The notes beneath the pieces were generated by a model. It saw only the letters and a program-made list of their open reading frames with translations. It searched no databases and was not told the origin of the DNA. DNA of 64,000 nt, from NCBI GenBank assembly GCA_944390915.1, contig CALXRS010000007.1, positions 2,214 through 66,213 on the forward strand, in the 5' to 3' direction. Below are positions 3,755 through 11,678 of the stretch, piece after piece (positions within the stretch are counted from its first letter, which is position 1; each line of letters begins with the position of its first letter). Source of the stretch: an uncultured Alphaproteobacteria bacterium (GTDB lineage: Bacteria; Pseudomonadota; Alphaproteobacteria; RF32; CAG-239). The translations under genes and the position numbers were made by a program.

Positions 3755-3826
3755 TTTACCGCTTGAGAAACGTCGGATTATCGTCTATACTTGAACAAAA
3801 CAAAAATTATTCGGGAGGATATGTTG

Positions 3827-4603
3827 ATGAAATTGCAAACGATGCTGTTGGCCGGATTATGCTGCCTTTATTCAACGGCGGTTTTTGCGCAGGCGGTGGA
3901 AGGCGTGCAGTCTTTCAGCCAGCCGGAAGGCTCCTGGCGGCGCGAAGCGCAGCCCCAAAAAGAAACTCCCAAACCGCAGCAACGCTTTTATGACGAACTG
4001 GGAAAATTTGCCATCGACAATATCGTTAATTCCGAACAAGCGTTTTGTTACGAAGTTTTTCCGCAAAATGCCGAATATGAAGGCTACACGCTGAACAGTT
4101 TTCCGATTCGCGGTTTTTGCGGCGTCATCGGCGAAGAAGTCCGCAACATGATAATTCAATATTTTATGGCCACGGAAGGGAATGTTCTGTTCGATCAGGC
4201 GGAAGAATGCATTATTGAACCGAAAATCATCATCCGTTTTATCCGCGGCGTAGACTATACGGATGTTTTGCTTTCTTCTCCCTGTCACTCCTTTGCCATA
4301 TTTTACGGCGGCGGCGTGCGGCTTTACAATTTCAAACCCGGTGCGCCGATTATCGACGCCATTCTCAAAGCTCTTGCCCCCAAACATGCGGAATTTGTCT
4401 CGCCCGCGCTCTTAAACCAATTGATGCCGGTCGGCGTGGTACAAAATGAACAGCAAAGACGGATTGTCAACCGTCGCAGCGAGCCGATTCGCAAGTGGAC
4501 TCAAAAAGTGGAAGAAGAAGCCGCCAAAAAAGCCGAAGAAAACAAAAAGAACAACAGCGGCTGGAACAAGCTGAAACTGCGCGGCTTCGGCGGAAACAAT
4601 TAA
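3827..4603 (+). CDS. Secreted/periplasmic hypothetical protein with Lys/Glu-rich C-terminal tail
   Basis: The track ORF 3791-4603 starts at a TTG. I prefer the ATG at 3827, 7 nt after GGAGGA (3814-3819), which gives MKLQTMLLAGLCCLYSTAVFAQA/VEG, a signal peptide. No domain recognised. Confidence 0.6.
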   Translation: MKLQTMLLAGLCCLYSTAVFAQAVEGVQSFSQPEGSWRREAQPQKETPKPQQRFYDELGKFAIDNIVNSEQAFCYEVFPQNAEYEGYTLNSFPIRGFCGVIGEEVRNMIIQYFMATEGNVLFDQAEECIIEPKIIIRFIRGVDYTDVLLSSPCHSFAIFYGGGVRLYNFKPGAPIIDAILKALAPKHAEFVSPALLNQLMPVGVVQNEQQRRIVNRRSEPIRKWTQKVEEEAAKKAEENKKNNSGWNKLKLRGFGGNN

Positions 4604-4635: not shown

Positions 4636-4664
4636 CTCTTCCCTCAGGGGAGAAGAGATTTTTG
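4636..4664 (+). terminator. Intrinsic terminator after the 3827-4603 gene
   Basis: ctcttcccc / ggggagaagag hairpin followed by ATTTTTG. Confidence 0.6.
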
Positions 4665-4675
4665 TTATCCCGAAT

Positions 4676-4727
4676 CCGTACGATTTTTTGTCGTGCCGCT
4701 GCCGTACGATTTTTTGTCGTGCCGCTG
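4676..4727. repeat. Perfect 26-bp tandem duplication (x2)
   Basis: ccgtacgattttttgtcgtgccgctg occurs at 4676-4701 and again at 4702-4727, in a convergent intergenic spacer. Confidence 0.9.
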
Positions 4728-4790
4728 CCGCTTTCTGCGCCTCTTTGAACTCGGAAAAAACCGCGGCCGACACGGGGTTTTCCATGTATG

Positions 4791-4836: not shown

Positions 4837-7800
4837 TTACCACGGATCGTTATATTTCAGTTTGGGATCATTCAGATTTCCAATATTCGTAGCCCCGCTC
4901 TTATCCCAAAAACTGCGCGGACTCTCTAACTGGTCATAGCCTGTATCCACATAAGTCGGTTCCCACCCTGCTTTGCGGTTAAAATAGCAATAAACGGTCA
5001 CATAGGCTTCCAACTGGCGATATTGCACCGGATACAGATTCCAATAAATGGTATTTGCCGAGACAGAGCCGTCCTCACCTACCTCCATATTTCCCGAGGA
5101 TCCGGTGTTGGCCGATCCGTGTTCTCCCGCAGCGTTCGTTGTGCCAACCATTCCGCTTATGAAATCCGCATAATAATTACGAGGATAAATAAATCCCATA
5201 ACCGTTCCCCAGCCGTTAAAGGTCGTGACTTCATCACACTTACCGTTTGTTTGAAGCCCTCCGCAGTTCGGCAATACCATGGCTCGCAGCCAGGTACTCT
5301 TTTGGAAGGTCAACGGGTTGACCGGTTCCACTTCCTCCGCCTCGGTTCTTTTTTCGCCGTTGACCGTATACCAATACAGATACGGATTGTTATGAGTGGC
5401 AATATCGATGGCGGAATTTTTAGTTACCGGCGTACCGGCCTGAGCCATCGACCAGCCGGAAGGATTGATGGTAATCACTTTCGAATACCCCTGCGGACAA
5501 ACCGGCGTCGGCACAAATCCGAGGTAGGCGGAAGTATAACTTTCGCTTGAAACGCTCTCCCCCGTCAGTTCCGTAAAGGTTGCCGGATCTTTCGTCTCAT
5601 CAGTCCACGGCGTATTATCGGGGTACGTGTTATCAACCACATAAATCCCCTTATTGATAAAGTCCGGCAAAATATCGCTCAACCGCGCGCCGCCGCGGGT
5701 GGTCAGCTTGATATCGTTCATCACCGACGTATAGGCCGGGTTAACCTCAAATTTATCATAAGGCACAATAGCTGCATTATCCGTACCTAAAATGGTCGCC
5801 CCCTCCCCCGGCGATGCGTGCGTCTTATTCAGCGCGCCGACGCTGGGCACCACCTGCGAAATAAAGCGATCCGCGGCTATGTAACCGATAGCTTCGGTTG
5901 TCGTGTCATAACCTTCCGATATCGTTTTGTTGGACAGGCGGCCGCCGCTTGCACTGTCAATATTAATTGCTCCGCGACGAATGTAAACGCTGCCGCGCTC
6001 ATCCGTTGTCGTCGTAGTGCTGTCGTCATTAGTTGTTGTAACCGCATCATGCGTTTCGTTGTTGTCCACCTGCAGGATAATATCCCCGGCGGCCAGAGTC
6101 GTCGTCGTGCTGGCCTCCGTAGCCAAAATCTGAAAATCGCCCTTGTTGACATAAAGCGAGGGGTTGCCCATACCTACACGAAGAGCATTGCCGTCGGCAT
6201 CGGTGGCATCGGCGCTGACCGACGGATTGCTCGGATATTCGTCCACAGCAGTATCGGCTGACGAAACGACGTCATAATCATAGATGGCAAAACCGCCGGC
6301 AAAGCGTGATGAAATATAACCTTCCTCCCTCTTGGCTTTAATATCCATCACCGGCCGCGCCTGATCGTCACTATCGAGCACCGGCTCGCTGATCGTCAGA
6401 TCCATGCCGCCCAACCCGAAAATACCGTTGTCGTCAACATCCCGCCGATACAAATAATCATGCGGATAATCAGCCGCGGCAGCCGTCGAGGACGTTGTTA
6501 TATTATCGGCAAAATGCTGCGAAATAAAACGGCTGTTATCCGCCACCGAATCGAGATAGGCGCCTCCTACTCCGCTATAGTCGCTGTAATAGGCGCGCAG
6601 CATGTTGTCCTGAATAGAAACCATGCCGTCGGTGATAAACGAGCCGTCGCTGAGCATTGTCGACAGGGAAATGCCCGTGGCCGCGCCTATTTTAACCTGT
6701 CCGGCAGCCGTGTTGTTGCTTATCGTCGCATAGGCTCCCATACCGGAATCGGCAACGGAGACGCCGGGCGTATATTCCAGCAAACCGACATGATTGCCGT
6801 CCGCATCGCCGACTTCGGTATCGACCAGAATATTGACCCCGCTTTCATGGTTCATCCTGATACCCGTCTGAATTTCCGTTCCGTCGTCGGAAGTATCGTC
6901 CTGTTCGGCTATCTGCAAACGATATCCTTTGTTGGAAAAGGCGTCGGTATAGGGGCCTACCAGCAAATAACCGTTTCCGGAATCCGTAACCGCGCCCGTA
7001 TCATCGGTAGCACTGGCTCTCTTTTTGGTTACCACATAAAATTCCTCGTCCTTGGTCACCTTGTCAAAATCTTCCGGCACAACACCGGCGCGCAGGGTGG
7101 CCGCATCGACGTTATAAGCCTTCAGTTTTGCCGTTTTTAAGCTGTCTTTCACAAAAGCCGGACCGTTTACCGTCAAGGCATGTTCGTTTCCGGTATCAGA
7201 ATCCGCAATATCCGTACTTTCAAATTTGCCGTTTTCGATTTTCGGCGTGCCGTCCGCGTTATAGCTGTATGTCGTATAGGAACCTTTGTGAGCATCGCCG
7301 CCGCCGACAATGACCGCCGGCGTCGCATTGGAGGTTACCCATTGATTTATGTCATTTTCATCATATTTTCCGCCGTCCGGATCGGTTTTCGGATTGCGCA
7401 CGCTCAAAGCGCCGTCAAAGATGTTGGCACGCGAGGCATTAATGGCTAACATCTTTTGCGTGCCGACAATTCCCGTTTCCGTCTCGCCTTCGGCATTGAC
7501 CGTTTCTCCTTCGGTTTTGGAGACAAATTCCATGGACGTATTATCCTTATCAACCGTCAACAGAGCGCCGGCCGTTTCTTCATCGATATTGCCATATTCC
7601 ATTTTGCCGGTGGTAACGCTGTATATGGCGTTGCCGCGAACGGTGGTGGTAACGGGATTGTTCGGATCGCTGTTATCCTCATGGGTGGCCGTTTCGTAAT
7701 ATTTGATACCGCCGTCGTTTTCGGTGGCGTCTTCTTCGCTGCGCACCGTAAACAACGAAGCCAACGCGGCAAAGTTTCCTTCCATAAAGGCACCGCCGCC

Positions 7801-8775
7801 GCTGCCGATATAAAGGGTATAGTCCAGATTCGGTTCATAGGTTTGTTCGTAGGGAATGGCTTCCAGTACGGTTGTTTCCGCCAACCTCTCGTCAACCTGG
7901 TTGGCCTCGCCGCCGACCATCCACTCCAGCTGCGGCGTCATGATAATCTGGTTCACCTGCCGAATGTTGTGAATCTTGTCGTTATAGGCCATGAACAGAT
8001 CCGTCTCCATGGAGTTCAGCAGATGGTCGTTCTGCGGCTCGTCCTTGCGGTGCAGCACGTCTTCGTTGGCCAAGCCCTGAGAGGAAATCGGCTGCAGCGA
8101 AGAAACGACGAAAGAATTTTCGGGCAGGGTGACGTCGCCCAGCTCCGCGTCGGAAGTGAGGCTCCAAATACCCTGAGCGCCCATAATCTCGCCGTTGGCA
8201 TCTTTATAGCCGCCGTTGCTGCCGACCATGGTGGCAATTCGCGCCACACGGGTCGAGGGAAAATCTTCTCCCTCGTTCGGCACCGCGGTCAAAAAGCCGG
8301 TAACCGTTTCCGCTACGATGGTTTCGTTGCCCTCTTCGTCGGTTTCGGTACCGGTTGTTTTGCGCAGCACGACCTGGAAAGAATTGTTGTCGGTTTCCGA
8401 GCTCGAAAACAGCTTGCTGTCTTGCGTTTTACCGTCTTTCAAAAAGCCGTAGGGCAAATATTCGCACAAGTGAGAAATATCAAACCTAACCGACGTGTCA
8501 TCGGTAAAACCGGCATAGTCCACGCTGTTAACGTTACATCCGTTTACCACCTTTTCGCCGTCGGTAATCCGCGTAAAGTTGTCTTTGATGTAGGCATCCA
8601 TGGCATCGGCCAGCACCCGCAACTGATTTGAGGCGTTGATATCCTGCAGTTCGGTCGTCCGTTCCGCCGCTTTTTTGTACAAAATAGGCGTAACCATTGC
8701 AATCAGCCCCAACATGGCCATTGCTTCCACCAGCATGGTGCCGGTTTCGTTTACTTTGTCAAATATCTTTTTCAT
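4837..8775 (-). CDS. Giant (1312 aa) surface protein with a prepilin/TadE-like class III signal peptide; putative pilus-associated adhesin
   Basis: N-terminus is MKKIFDKVNETG/TMLVEAMAMLGLIAMVTPILY: a short charged leader, Gly at -1, Glu at +5, then about 20 hydrophobic residues. The rest is D/T/G/N/S-rich and almost Cys-free, apart from a Cys-containing C-terminal ~250 aa. GGGGGAAAA RBS upstream. Starts 21 nt downstream of the 8797-9684 gene. Confidence 0.6.
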   Translation of the reverse strand: MKKIFDKVNETGTMLVEAMAMLGLIAMVTPILYKKAAERTTELQDINASNQLRVLADAMDAYIKDNFTRITDGEKVVNGCNVNSVDYAGFTDDTSVRFDISHLCEYLPYGFLKDGKTQDSKLFSSSETDNNSFQVVLRKTTGTETDEEGNETIVAETVTGFLTAVPNEGEDFPSTRVARIATMVGSNGGYKDANGEIMGAQGIWSLTSDAELGDVTLPENSFVVSSLQPISSQGLANEDVLHRKDEPQNDHLLNSMETDLFMAYNDKIHNIRQVNQIIMTPQLEWMVGGEANQVDERLAETTVLEAIPYEQTYEPNLDYTLYIGSGGGAFMEGNFAALASLFTVRSEEDATENDGGIKYYETATHEDNSDPNNPVTTTVRGNAIYSVTTGKMEYGNIDEETAGALLTVDKDNTSMEFVSKTEGETVNAEGETETGIVGTQKMLAINASRANIFDGALSVRNPKTDPDGGKYDENDINQWVTSNATPAVIVGGGDAHKGSYTTYSYNADGTPKIENGKFESTDIADSDTGNEHALTVNGPAFVKDSLKTAKLKAYNVDAATLRAGVVPEDFDKVTKDEEFYVVTKKRASATDDTGAVTDSGNGYLLVGPYTDAFSNKGYRLQIAEQDDTSDDGTEIQTGIRMNHESGVNILVDTEVGDADGNHVGLLEYTPGVSVADSGMGAYATISNNTAAGQVKIGAATGISLSTMLSDGSFITDGMVSIQDNMLRAYYSDYSGVGGAYLDSVADNSRFISQHFADNITTSSTAAAADYPHDYLYRRDVDDNGIFGLGGMDLTISEPVLDSDDQARPVMDIKAKREEGYISSRFAGGFAIYDYDVVSSADTAVDEYPSNPSVSADATDADGNALRVGMGNPSLYVNKGDFQILATEASTTTTLAAGDIILQVDNNETHDAVTTTNDDSTTTTTDERGSVYIRRGAINIDSASGGRLSNKTISEGYDTTTEAIGYIAADRFISQVVPSVGALNKTHASPGEGATILGTDNAAIVPYDKFEVNPAYTSVMNDIKLTTRGGARLSDILPDFINKGIYVVDNTYPDNTPWTDETKDPATFTELTGESVSSESYTSAYLGFVPTPVCPQGYSKVITINPSGWSMAQAGTPVTKNSAIDIATHNNPYLYWYTVNGEKRTEAEEVEPVNPLTFQKSTWLRAMVLPNCGGLQTNGKCDEVTTFNGWGTVMGFIYPRNYYADFISGMVGTTNAAGEHGSANTGSSGNMEVGEDGSVSANTIYWNLYPVQYRQLEAYVTVYCYFNRKAGWEPTYVDTGYDQLESPRSFWDKSGATNIGNLNDPKLKYNDPW

Positions 8776-8796
8776 GGCTTGTTTTCCCCCGTAAAA

Positions 8797-9684
8797 CTAG
8801 AACCTGGACATATAAACCAGACAATAATCGCAGCTGCTGTACATGTCGTCAAGACTCTGCGGATTGGCCGGATCATAGTCTTCGTTGTGCCGGCGCAGAC
8901 TTCCGCAAACATTGGCAAAGGACTTTTCTCCCGTTGACGTTTCCGAAATATAGCTCGGAATCGGCAGATAAAATTGTCCGCCCTGCCCGTAAACGCCCAT
9001 CGGCGTATGAATAACCTCGGTGTATTGGTTTTCGTCGGTATAGACTTCCGAATCCGTCAGTTCGTCGCGGTCAATGGCATATCCCAATCCGTGTGTAAAT
9101 CCGGTTGTCGTCCGCATGGCGCCGAGCAACATGGCATCCGGCTTGCCGGAACGCACGTCGCGCCATTTGGAGGGCACGCAGCCGTAAGTTACCAGATAAA
9201 CGGCCGTCGACAACCCGCTGCAGCAATTGGAACCGTCGCCGAGATCGGGGTTAAGCCCCGTACCATCGTCCGAGTCGCCGGTTGTTCCGTCGTCGGTCGC
9301 GCCGTCCGCATCGGACGGCGGCAAACCCGCCGTGCAGCTGGAAGGCAATGCCAACACGCCTTCTTCTTCCAGATGGTTAACATCCAGACAATACACCCAG
9401 CTCGTAAATTTCGTAAAGCCGCTGTCCTGCTGGAAACCGTAGGGCAGATCGGCTTGAAGCATGTCCGCGGTCAGCTCTCCCGGACGATAGCTCAGGTTAA
9501 GCACCGTCGAATTGCGGTTGCGCTTGGACAAATAGTTCATCGCCGCGCGGTGTTGCACGTACATTTTGGTGATAATCGTCTGTGCCTGCGGCTCGACATA
9601 CAATTCCTTGATATCGGGGCGCAGCGACGTATTCAGCGCAAACAACGCGGCAATAAAAGTTGCTATAATGACCCACAGATACAT
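8797..9684 (-). CDS. N-terminally membrane-anchored hypothetical protein (295 aa), co-operonic with the giant pilin-like gene
   Basis: MYLWVIIATFIAALFALNTSL.. is a hydrophobic anchor. There is an acidic G/D/T linker (PPSDADGATDDGTTGDSDDGTG) and several Cys pairs. An in-frame stop lies 5 codons upstream of the ATG. Confidence 0.6.
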   Translation of the reverse strand: MYLWVIIATFIAALFALNTSLRPDIKELYVEPQAQTIITKMYVQHRAAMNYLSKRNRNSTVLNLSYRPGELTADMLQADLPYGFQQDSGFTKFTSWVYCLDVNHLEEEGVLALPSSCTAGLPPSDADGATDDGTTGDSDDGTGLNPDLGDGSNCCSGLSTAVYLVTYGCVPSKWRDVRSGKPDAMLLGAMRTTTGFTHGLGYAIDRDELTDSEVYTDENQYTEVIHTPMGVYGQGGQFYLPIPSYISETSTGEKSFANVCGSLRRHNEDYDPANPQSLDDMYSSCDYCLVYMSRF

Positions 9685-9912
9685 AGGCTCATCCCATCAA
9701 TACACCAATTTCAAATGTATTCTAACATAAACAACTTTAAAAAAAAAGCAAATTAAATCTCACGCGCCCTATTTCACATATTTGTAACATCGTTTTTGCG
9801 GTTTCGAATCGCTTGGTTCTGAAAAAACGGCTCATAAAAACATCTTTTTTCTTGTCTCGCAAAAAAAATGAGCTACGATATTTAACCGTAGTTTTTACAA
9901 AGGATAACCGGA

Positions 9913-10083
9913 ATGGTTAAAGTCAATCAGATTTCCTGCCCGCGGCACGGTCGTCTTGCGCGCCGGCTGTTGCTGACTCTTGCCGTCGCCGCAATTTGCA
10001 CCGTCTTGTTGCAATGCCTCGAAACAGGTTTTCGACCGGCAGAGAAAAACACGCCGCCCGCAACGGAGGAAACAAGGTTATGA
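9913..10083 (+). CDS. Possible small membrane protein (56 aa), translationally coupled to the next gene
   Basis: Too short for the ORF track. My translation is MVKVNQISCPRHGRLARRLLLTLAVAAICTVLLQCLETGFRPAEKNTPPATEETRL. An AAGGA lies upstream, and the stop TGA overlaps the ATG at 10080 (ATGA). Confidence 0.3.
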   Translation: MVKVNQISCPRHGRLARRLLLTLAVAAICTVLLQCLETGFRPAEKNTPPATEETRL

Positions 10084-10829
10084 CAAACGAATCCGCCCCC
10101 GCGGAAAGGTTCCTTTCCGCAGAGGAAATTTCCTTTTTCTTCCGCCGGCAAAACGAAGACGATGCCGCAGAAAATGACGCCGCAAAAGAAAATACCTCTT
10201 CGGCGGAAACGGCCGCGGCAATCGTGCTGAAAAAAATCCGTCCGTTGTTCCGCCGCGCCGTCGAACTGCATGTTTTGCCCCGACAGCGGCAACAATATCG
10301 GCCGGCGGAAAATGTTTTTTCGTACCGCCGATCCAAAGACGGAAAAGAAATCTTTTGCCGTTTTTCCGAAAGTGCCGCGGCTGCGCTCGTCTGCGCCGCT
10401 TTCGGCGGCAAAAACCCGCAGCATGCCCTGCCCGTGCGGGGAATGGCCGTCTGTTTTTTGCGCCGACTGGCGGATTTGCTTGCCCAGCCGTCGCTTTTGG
10501 GCGAAGCCGAAGCCGTTGTGCTGCGGCTTGACATCGGCGATTGCCGTGCGGAAATTCTGCTGGCCGCAAACGCTTCCGAATCCGCTTCGTCCGAACGACA
10601 GCCCGCCGCCGCGCCCGAGCTCACCGTTCGCACCCGTCCGATTATTTTTGAAGCCGAACAAGTCAGGCAATGGCAGGCGGGGACATTTGTGCCCCTCTCC
10701 GCAACAGACTCGGAAACGGCGGAAATTCTTGTTTCCGGACAACCGTCCCGCCCCGCGATTATCGGCCGAAGAGGAAACAAGGTCGCGCTCAAACTTATTG
10801 AAAGGCAACAAAAAAATGATGCATATTGA
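10080..10829 (+). CDS. Flagellar switch / type III sorting-platform-like protein with a C-terminal SpoA (FliN-type) domain
   Basis: Same frame as track ORF 9996-10829. I prefer the ATG at 10080, preceded by GGAGGA. The C-terminus ..IIFEAEQVRQWQAGTFVPLSATDSETAEILVSGQPSRPAIIGRRGNKVALKLIE fits the FliN/YscQ SpoA pattern. The N-terminal RFLSAEEISFFF resembles the FliM/FliY LSQxEIDxLL peptide. Confidence 0.55.
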   Translation: MTNESAPAERFLSAEEISFFFRRQNEDDAAENDAAKENTSSAETAAAIVLKKIRPLFRRAVELHVLPRQRQQYRPAENVFSYRRSKDGKEIFCRFSESAAAALVCAAFGGKNPQHALPVRGMAVCFLRRLADLLAQPSLLGEAEAVVLRLDIGDCRAEILLAANASESASSERQPAAAPELTVRTRPIIFEAEQVRQWQAGTFVPLSATDSETAEILVSGQPSRPAIIGRRGNKVALKLIERQQKNDAY

Positions 10830-11193
10830 ATTTTGGCTGAATATCGTTACCATTATCTTGCTCGTTCCCGCCATATTTTATATGGCCAGATTCTGCCGCG
10901 GACTCGAAAAAATGCGGCAAAACCGGGAAACCTTGCTTGAACTGGCACAAACTCTTCGCCAAATGGCGCAAAAATACGAAAATAAAACTTCTCCCAAAAC
11001 CGCCGCGCAAATCGTCGAAACGGAAGGCGGCGCGCCGACCGAAGAACCGTTGCGCCGGCAGCCCCAAAAAGAGATTTCTCCGCTTCGGGAACCGCATTTC
11101 GAAACCCGCGGCGCTGTCGACAAAACCGAAGAAAACCAATATTCTTCGGAAGCGGAAAAGGAACTTTTGCAGGCTCTGCGCTCCATCAAATAA
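10816..11193 (+). CDS. Small TM + coiled-coil protein, DUF6468-like (flagellar-cluster associated in Alphaproteobacteria)
   Basis: This is the C-terminal part of track ORF 10270-11193. MMHIEFWLNIVTIILLVPAIFYMARFCRGLEKMRQNRETLLELAQTL... ends with ..SEAEKELLQALRSIK. It overlaps the previous gene by 14 nt. Confidence 0.45.
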   Translation: MMHIEFWLNIVTIILLVPAIFYMARFCRGLEKMRQNRETLLELAQTLRQMAQKYENKTSPKTAAQIVETEGGAPTEEPLRRQPQKEISPLREPHFETRGAVDKTEENQYSSEAEKELLQALRSIK

Positions 11194-11204
11194 GGGATCG
11201 GGAA

Positions 11205-11678
11205 ATGAAAAAAACATTGTTTTTTGCTTTTCTTCTCATAGTTTTGACATCGCTGCTCGGCGTGAAAATTTTTCGCCTCGGCCATATTTTTCTACCGCCG
11301 CATCACGTCTTCCGGAGCGCCGAAAACACCGCCGAAAACCGTCGGAACGACGATCGCCGGATGAATTTGCTGAAAGCGGAACACCGACAGGCCGTCGATC
11401 GGGCTATCCGTCGCCGGCTTGACGCCGACGCCGCCCTTGCCGCGGACGGCAACGGCTTTTCGACCGGCAGGCTGAGCGACATCTATGCCCGTATGGCGCC
11501 CGAAGACGCCGCCCGCCTCATCGAAACTCTGGATACGACCGACGCCGTCCGCCTCATCGAAAGCATGCGCACAAACGACGCTGCGGCAATCCTTACCCGC
11601 CTGAAACCGGAGAAGGCAAGAGAAATCACCGAAAGAATGCTGGGCGCAACCCTGCCGCCCGAAAAAGAATATAAATAA
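11205..11678 (+). CDS. MotE-like protein (MgtE-N-type repeat, flagellar motor chaperone family)
   Basis: Signal/anchor [20 protein letters not shown], then ..[50 protein letters not shown], the COG3334/MotE signature. Confidence 0.6.

Follow-up and report, generated by a model that had tools for sequence, protein, structure and literature searches.

The minor pilins at the tip of type IV pili decide what a pilus binds and whether it assembles at all. PilV of the plasmids R64 and TP114 (IncI1 and IncI2), whose constant N-terminal region constitutes the Pfam family Shufflon_N (PF04917), acts in thin pili as a minor pilin and an adhesin (PMC9045228, PMC5430464). TcpB of the toxin-coregulated pilus (TCP) of Vibrio cholerae and CofB of the colonization factor antigen III pilus (CFA/III) of enterotoxigenic Escherichia coli (ETEC) prime assembly and occupy the pilus tip (PMC5207764, PMC6048534). 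Modular pilins are widespread and the principle of modular minor pilins has already been published, as in PilB and PilC of Streptococcus sanguinis, in which a pilin module bears a grafted functional module that is probably tip-exposed (PMC8179133). Here, we describe a gene at positions 4837-8775, minus strand, of a 64,000-nucleotide stretch of contig CALXRS010000007.1 (the window; contig 7 of the assembly) from an uncultured alphaproteobacterium of the chicken gut, whose 1.54 Mb genome lies in 45 contigs and is complete by marker genes. The gene encodes a protein of 1312 aa, which we call the giant. We consider it probable that the giant is a modular minor pilin and takes the place of PilV in a type IVb pilus of the R64 type encoded on the chromosome and, by analogy with the systems above, it is probably a tip adhesin.

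An original prediction, made from the sequence of the window, had given the same reading frame and length, without its strand, and had read the protein as a possible giant pilin-like adhesin on a filament encoded elsewhere, with a signal closest to those of the Tad-type proteins TadE and TadG. The pilin-like signal, the remote machinery and the probable display at a tip have stood; the Tad affinity has given way to a PilV-type one. The frame is confirmed as a real gene, which starts with ATG and has a GGGGG ribosome-binding site about 10 nt 5' of the start. Comparison within the family divides its product into three parts, of which the N-module (residues 1-275) and the C-module (926-1312) are conserved and the middle (276-925) is variable, with the following features:

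8740..8775, minus strand: leader peptide, residues 1-12 (MKKIFDKVNETG), basic and variable; its last residue, Gly12, is invariant and marks the site where the prepilin peptidase is predicted to cut

7951..8739, minus strand: pilin-like N-module, mature residues 13-275, with Glu17 at +5, alpha1-N, a long helix to residue 65 and then a beta-sheet

6001..7950, minus strand: variable beta-rich middle ('stalk'), residues 276-925, poorly conserved and indel-rich between species

4840..6000, minus strand: conserved C-terminal module, residues 926-1312, with a conserved C-terminus (...RLNDPxLKYxDPW)

5626..5760, minus strand: residues 1006-1050 (YDKFEVNPAYTSVMNDIKLTTRGGARLSDILPDFINKGIYVVDNTY), a motif that hardly varies and is better conserved than any other stretch of the giant

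The N-terminus, quoted to the letter in the original prediction (MKKIFDKVNETG/TMLVEAMAMLGLIAMVTPILY), has the short basic leader, the Gly at -1 and the Glu at +5 with a hydrophobic helix that had been noticed there, Glu17 being the +5 position when counted from the predicted cleavage after Gly12. Both residues are invariant in family alignments of 38 and 55 sequences, in which the leader ahead of Gly12 varies while remaining basic. The family has more than 1000 homologues (90%-identity clusters), and nearly all of them stem from uncultured Alphaproteobacteria or Rhodospirillales metagenome-assembled genomes; 121 of them were retrieved, and inspection of this list by eye found Gly12 and Glu17 in every homologue with an untruncated N-terminus. 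The next ~35 residues (TLLVEAMAMLGLIAMVTPILYKKAAERTxELQDINA) are nearly invariant in a family whose overall identity goes down to 35-45%. The pattern G/xxxxE, in which the slash marks the predicted cleavage site, is kept in orthologues of four other alphaproteobacterial families, the distant signals reading EQKG/ALMLEAIAVLGL, SQRG/ALMVEAIALLGL and NELG/SIMVEVIAVLGL.

The genome has 36,912 candidate starts, and each of them was scanned for the same motif. The true first start codons that carry it are those of the giant and of three PilS/Bundlin-type pilins, which are type IVb pilins recognised by Pfam, and the leaders end alike (TQSG/R, EQSG/R and NENG/Y in the three pilins, NETG/T in the giant). 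When the N-domain of the giant was compared with the PilS-type pilins of the genome by hhalign, the signals fell in register (E 0.008), with no alignment beyond the N-terminal helix. The prepilin methylation/cleavage models PF07963 (N_methyl) and TIGR02532 gave no match to the giant at E <= 0.1; N_methyl is insensitive here, as it finds the genome's own PilS-type pilin only at E = 0.04. Since the leader drifts between families but Gly12 and Glu17 stay the same, and since the motif is pilin-specific genome-wide, chance is excluded, and judged by these sequence comparisons the giant starts with a true class III (prepilin) signal.

What follows the signal also has a pilin-like architecture. An AlphaFold2 model of residues 1-700, built on the 55-sequence alignment (mean predicted local distance difference test, pLDDT, of 76), places one helix at residues 2-65 (64 residues) and then strands at 95-99, 133-145, 151-164 and onwards, with a beta-rich region after the N-terminal helix and sheet. 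In this model, the helix and the sheet, of 4-5 strands, would form the 'lollipop' layout of pilins. The N-module is further marked by the motifs LPYGF and MVGSNGGY...GAQGIW and by the pair C80/C104, whose cysteines occur together in 57 sequences and singly in none. In the C-terminal module, C1171 and C1180 occur together in 74 sequences and singly in two, and C1093 and C1263 are invariant in the family, in keeping with the Cys-bearing C-terminal module of the original prediction. As the cysteines behave as disulfide pairs, the bulk of the giant is extracytoplasmic, which is what a prepilin topology entails.

The C-module was found in 353 of 1.84 billion representative clusters, always at the C-terminus and in proteins of 900-1470 aa or their fragments; as far as these searches reach, it is confined to the protein family of the giant. 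Within it, residues 1026-1050, part of the 40-residue segment NPAYTSVMxDIKLTTRGGARLSDILPDFINKGIYVVDNTY, show a top-residue frequency of 0.96, and residues 1006-1050 are the sole part of the giant that a genome search found in other alphaproteobacterial families. Contigs of other species from the same metagenomes match the DNA of the window only at 5626-5760 (the C-terminal motif) and 8634-8697 (the N-terminal helix), so that these two stretches are conserved even at the nucleotide level. AlphaFold assigned a pLDDT below 50 to the invariant C-terminal motif and to the conserved segment 234-328, possibly because their folding depends on an oligomer or a partner.

The middle is, as had been described, D/T/G/N-rich and non-repetitive, with no notable internal DNA repeats. 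Some relatives have bactofilin-like or left-handed beta-helix repeats in its place, which would point to a fibre thin enough for threading through a secretin. The middle also varies between strains: in contigs from two metagenome runs, a 66-nt patch at 7621-7688 is exchanged for 72 other letters. One run has an in-frame 3-nt insertion at 8132, which falls near residue 215, within a loop of the N-module that is less conserved. The remainder of the locus is ~99% identical between strains, as judged from contigs of metagenome runs.

The link to PilV comes from the family. Six of 38 members, as well as the orthologue in genome G168, score above the cut-off of Shufflon_N (best E 4e-11), in the region equivalent to residues 122-306 and with 27-38 bits in the members inspected individually. 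The giant is 43% identical to these scoring members over residues 10-280 and, on sequence, is best described as a divergent relative of PilV and not as a scoring member of Shufflon_N.

Its distribution points the same way. In a class-wide sample from outside the family, 5 of 199 genomes have a giant-like gene, and all five are among the 26 that encode a strong PilN-type secretin (hypergeometric P = 2.7e-5, or ~3e-4 counting families). A stand-alone Shufflon_N gene is present in 12 of the 21 secretin-positive genomes without a giant, in open reading frames of 343-911 aa and larger, and several of these genes lie within ~8 kb of the secretin. By contrast, nine genomes with a giant were tested, and among them Shufflon_N matches one gene, the giant of G168. 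Because stand-alone Shufflon_N genes thus occur only in tested genomes without a giant, the giant looks like the PilV equivalent of its systems.

Shufflon_N matches also lie inside frames of 863, 911 and 3296 aa in other Alphaproteobacteria, with a weaker case in a frame of 1164 aa (16 bits, E 0.008, below the cut-off); the coordinates, for the frames of 863, 911, 1164 and 3296 aa in turn, are G152:C153:19869-20720, G334:C44:15837-16364, G293:C1:678958-679392 and G267:C34:142029-142199. All four frames are without the C-terminal module of the giant family. Judging from these sequences, oversized PilV-type pilins may be a wider, undescribed phenomenon.

The window itself holds no pilus assembly genes, as the original prediction had noted. 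It had named a genome without pilus machinery or prepilin peptidase as an argument against its reading; this does not apply, for both are found on other contigs of the same genome. There is one type IVb pilus cluster, on contig 19, with the pilL-pilS order of R64:

contig 19, in order: TcpQ-family (PilL-like) lipoprotein, PilN-family secretin, PAP_PilO, PilP-family protein, GspE/PilB-type (T2SSE) ATPase, T2SSF

contig 19, continued: two PilS-type pilins, a phosphoglycerol-transferase-like gene, a third pilin

The secretin is a PilN-family type IVb secretin (TIGR02520, 265 bits). The cluster contains neither a PilU (peptidase) gene nor a PilV gene. A single A24 prepilin peptidase of 225 aa, with the catalytic Asp motifs EIDRR...LLPD and GGGDIKL, is encoded on contig 35 next to groES/groEL. 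In the genus g13, an apparent physical linkage of peptidase and giant turned out to be the linkage of the peptidase to groESL, with the giant operon merely adjacent. In total, the genome has one secretin and one T2SSF platform gene, both within the R64-type cluster, and hence no Tad or type II system. Like TadE, TadF and TadG, the giant has a Gly ahead of a hydrophobic stretch in which Glu occupies +5; however, it has no match to PF07811 and its genome has no Tad machinery, and we therefore reject the Tad hypothesis.

PilV of these plasmids has a length of 430-470 aa, so that the giant, at 1312 aa, is about three times longer. The two otherwise share a prepilin-type N-terminus with an N-module that is homologous in members of the giant family, the same kind of machinery (PilL/N/O/P/Q/R, with a major pilin of the PilS type and a short A24 peptidase) and, for the giant as an expectation, the role of an adhesive minor subunit (PMC9045228, PMC5430464). 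In contrast to PilV, the giant is chromosomal, belongs to the core of a whole order, is encoded outside the pil cluster and is paired with a leaderless partner protein. Nor does it have a shufflon: neither sfx-like inverted repeats nor alternative C-terminal segments were found in or after the gene, and the C-module is conserved instead of switched, the middle being the part that varies.

TcpB and CofB resemble the giant in combining a pilin module, a linker and beta-rich C-terminal domains; the pilus cluster of the genome has TcpQ-family and Bundlin/PilS-type parts, as in TCP and CFA/III, and a secreted protein is encoded next to the giant, as with TcpF and CofJ (PMC9565799, PMC6048534). However, the giant has no sequence similarity to TcpB or CofB, is ~2.5-3 times larger and lies outside the pilus operon. 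The top four matches of its C-terminal half in a Foldseek search of the PDB are all to the C-terminal half of TcpB, which lends weak support to the minor-pilin reading at non-significant scores (E 0.18-0.98, TM 0.1-0.35, probability <=0.28). A phage tail-fibre-like reading found no support, as a Foldseek search of the same half against viral structures gave nothing significant. The survey of modular pilins by Raynaud et al. (2021) required an InterPro prepilin signature plus a known extra domain, and its most extreme multi-domain case has 860 residues (PMC8179133). The giant is longer than that, and as it has neither the signature nor a known extra domain, its family would escape such a survey. 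As a pilin, the giant would widen the known size range of pilins but add no new principle; it differs from PilV, TcpB and CofB in its size, its chromosomal, order-wide core status, its separation from the pil cluster, its family-specific C-domain with the almost invariant motif and its leaderless partner, together with the absence of a shufflon.

From these data, we propose the following course of events. The prepilin would enter the inner membrane via its N-terminal hydrophobic helix, and the separately encoded A24 peptidase would cut the 12-residue leader after Gly12. The mature helix, with Glu at +5, would then dock in the core of the PilS-type major-pilin filament, assembly being driven by the PilQ-like ATPase, the PilR-like platform and the PilN-like secretin from another contig. 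The giant would probably sit at the tip and prime assembly, like the large type IVb minor pilins PilV, TcpB and CofB, whereas its variable beta-rich stalk of ~650 residues and its disulfide-bonded C-domain would project outward as the adhesive or receptor-binding end. The presumably co-transcribed leaderless partner of 295 aa, tentatively pilin-like, would probably join the giant in a tip or priming complex.

Several observations weigh against this proposal. No Pfam or NCBIfam model matches the giant, N_methyl, Shufflon_N and TadE included, and in the genome search Shufflon_N gave no match to it even at E <= 10. Foldseek found no significant pilin match in the PDB for the 700-residue model of the N-terminal half and no significant match for the C-terminal half, and nothing came below E = 0.5 when the whole-family and N-domain alignments served as profiles against PDB sequences. 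In the genomes compared, the giant gene is not beside the pilus cluster and adjoins flagellar genes; here, it lies on contig 7 and the pil cluster on contig 19, and in the relatives checked the two are likewise on different contigs or far apart. Within the order, co-occurrence is uninformative because all components are core: among 151 genomes, the C-module of the giant is present in 150, and the A24 peptidase and T2SSF in 149 each, with PAP_PilO in only 112, its model being weak here. The expression evidence consists of a few small metatranscriptome contigs, for which DNA carry-over is possible. Furthermore, with ~1300 residues the giant is about three times larger than the characterised type IVb minor pilins. 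To our knowledge, nobody has demonstrated the passage of a subunit of this size through a secretin.

Among the alternatives, the one that survives best, though we consider it unlikely, is that the giant is a substrate of the prepilin peptidase without being a pilus subunit, its signal serving for targeting and processing only. It would then remain as a separate envelope or surface fibre and resemble the 'bindosome' proteins of archaea, whose signals are of class III, or a short pseudopilus-like stub. The lack of any linkage to the pilus cluster, a size far past that of known pilins, a peptidase gene that stands alone beside groESL and not with the pilins, and a globular part of the N-domain unlike the PilS-type pilins of the genome beyond the N-terminal helix would all agree with such a fibre. 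Yet a near-invariant Glu at +5 together with the whole of alpha1-N corresponds to the demands of filament packing and is unneeded for mere processing, the N-module is homologous to that of PilV, a proven pilus component, and across the class the giant is restricted to genomes that have PilN-type machinery, where it replaces the stand-alone PilV gene.

Less probable still is that the giant is an ordinary inner-membrane protein with an uncleaved signal anchor (type II) and a large domain in the periplasm, Gly and Glu being coincidental or otherwise used. The original prediction had allowed for such a mimic of the motif, and the missing match to the prepilin methylation models would fit it, were N_methyl not so insensitive towards the genome's bona fide PilS-type pilin. 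A charged Glu within a membrane helix is normally selected against; here, this buried Glu and the Gly are invariant over deep divergence and across families while the leader drifts, and the motif is specific to pilins genome-wide. Finally, that the giant is a flagellum-associated envelope protein, its operon being part of the flagellar system, is highly improbable: the divergent flagellar arrangement is kept in relatives of only 39-44% identity, but uvrB, smpB and lepA are likewise conserved around the operon, which lies elsewhere in G050 (beside groEL) and G188 (among unrelated genes), the distribution tracks type IVb secretins, and we know of no flagellar component with a class III signal.

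If the giant is indeed a minor pilin standing in for PilV, then a whole order of uncultured gut Alphaproteobacteria with small genomes (1.3-2.0 Mb) retains, as a single-copy core gene, a pilin three times the size of any characterised type IVb minor pilin. It would be a likely host- or mucus-attachment factor of organisms known from metagenomes alone. Current pilin signatures miss the giant, which supports a suspicion already voiced in the literature, that the number of modular pilins is underestimated. The giant also raises two mechanistic questions, namely how so large a subunit passes through the secretin and what the job of the leaderless partner is.

The partner gene and the sequences that flank the two-gene operon are arranged as follows:

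9685..9920, minus strand: AT-rich spacer 5' of the two-gene operon, with the ribosome-binding site GGGATGAG ahead of the partner ATG, common divergently to a small flagellar gene group

8797..9684, minus strand: partner gene, 295 aa, with a gap of 21 nt ahead of the giant gene

4761-4775, minus strand: terminator-like hairpin and T-run, ~60 nt past the stop codon of the giant gene

The partner adjoins the giant in every locus inspected, those of distant families (G188) included. One metatranscriptome contig spans the partner-giant junction (8730-8923), which is weak evidence for co-transcription. A candidate second paralogous pair in locus L013 was rejected, its 1033-aa gene being an unrelated TPR-like one and its 220-aa gene MotE-like.

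The N-terminus of the partner is a hydrophobic helix at once (MYLWVIIATF...), without a leader and with Ile, not Glu, at the position equivalent to +5, and its reading frame cannot be extended upstream. The aligned homologues that keep their N-terminus start with MY[LI]W, or MFYW in one distant orthologue, and the LPYGF motif and the cysteines are conserved. In hhalign, residues 6-92 of the partner align with residues 16-118 of the giant, up to the common LPYGF motif (E 1.3e-4 to 1.6e-4, probability 51-54%). A pairwise BLASTP comparison of the partner with the N-domain of the giant was not significant, none of 41 partner homologues has a Pfam domain, and neither of the two neighbours of the giant (295 aa and 270 aa) matches Pfam or NCBIfam. 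On these alignments, the partner may be a leaderless pilin-like relative of the N-domain of the giant, a relationship to which we give about even odds.

A more far-reaching possibility, which we put forward only tentatively and regard as rather doubtful, is that the operon encodes a new tip or priming module, made of a fibre-like pilin of ~1300 residues and a leaderless pilin-like partner without Glu at +5, with residues 226-280 and 1006-1050, two segments of striking conservation and low model confidence, mediating oligomerisation or the binding of partner or cargo. Were this true, the partner would need no prepilin peptidase and could sit only at the very top of the filament, very large cargo would be threaded through a type IVb secretin, and the gut Alphaproteobacteria would have an unrecognised, order-wide organelle of host attachment.

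The operon is flanked by lepA, a small flagellar gene group and uvrB. FliN-like, DUF6468 and MotE-like genes occupy 9913-11678 on the plus strand, divergent from the pilin operon, and relatives keep the operon divergent from fliL, fliM/fliN-like (full fliM), DUF6468 and MotE-like genes. We read this flagellar synteny as general gene-order conservation. The divergent promoters could couple motility and attachment inversely. On the other side of the giant gene lies a further syntenic neighbour:

3791..4603, plus strand: secreted, Cys-containing protein of 270 aa and no known family, convergent with the giant here

In relatives, this protein is encoded directly downstream of the giant on the same strand, and in one it is duplicated. 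That it might be a pilus-associated secreted cargo like TcpF and CofJ is only a guess by analogy. In the convergent spacer, at 4659-4727 of the window, a 26-bp tandem duplication is polymorphic between metagenome runs: one copy, at 4676, is absent from contigs of runs X4, X7 and X13 (other chicken/bird-gut runs), and run X2 agrees with the window.

The pilus genes of the genome offer some further observations. The third pilin-like gene of the cluster (C19:13575-14123; locus L007 7576-8124, minus strand) is picked up by two Pfam models, Bundlin and PilS, and starts with MSMRKAEKQIYTLIAIM..., without Gly at -1 and without Glu at +5, which makes it a second non-canonical pilin-like protein besides the leaderless partner. 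Two orphan ATPases of ~320 aa (C10:49633-50589 and C23:2657-3631) are encoded at a great distance from the pilus cluster. The PilT/PilU family gives their best score, which is below its cut-off, and on this similarity they are possible retraction motors. Between the pilin genes (C19:10919-12706; locus L007 4920-6707, minus strand) lies the gene of a 595-aa membrane enzyme resembling phosphoglycerol transferases and lipoteichoic acid (LTA) synthases, a placement that would fit post-translational modification of the pilins.

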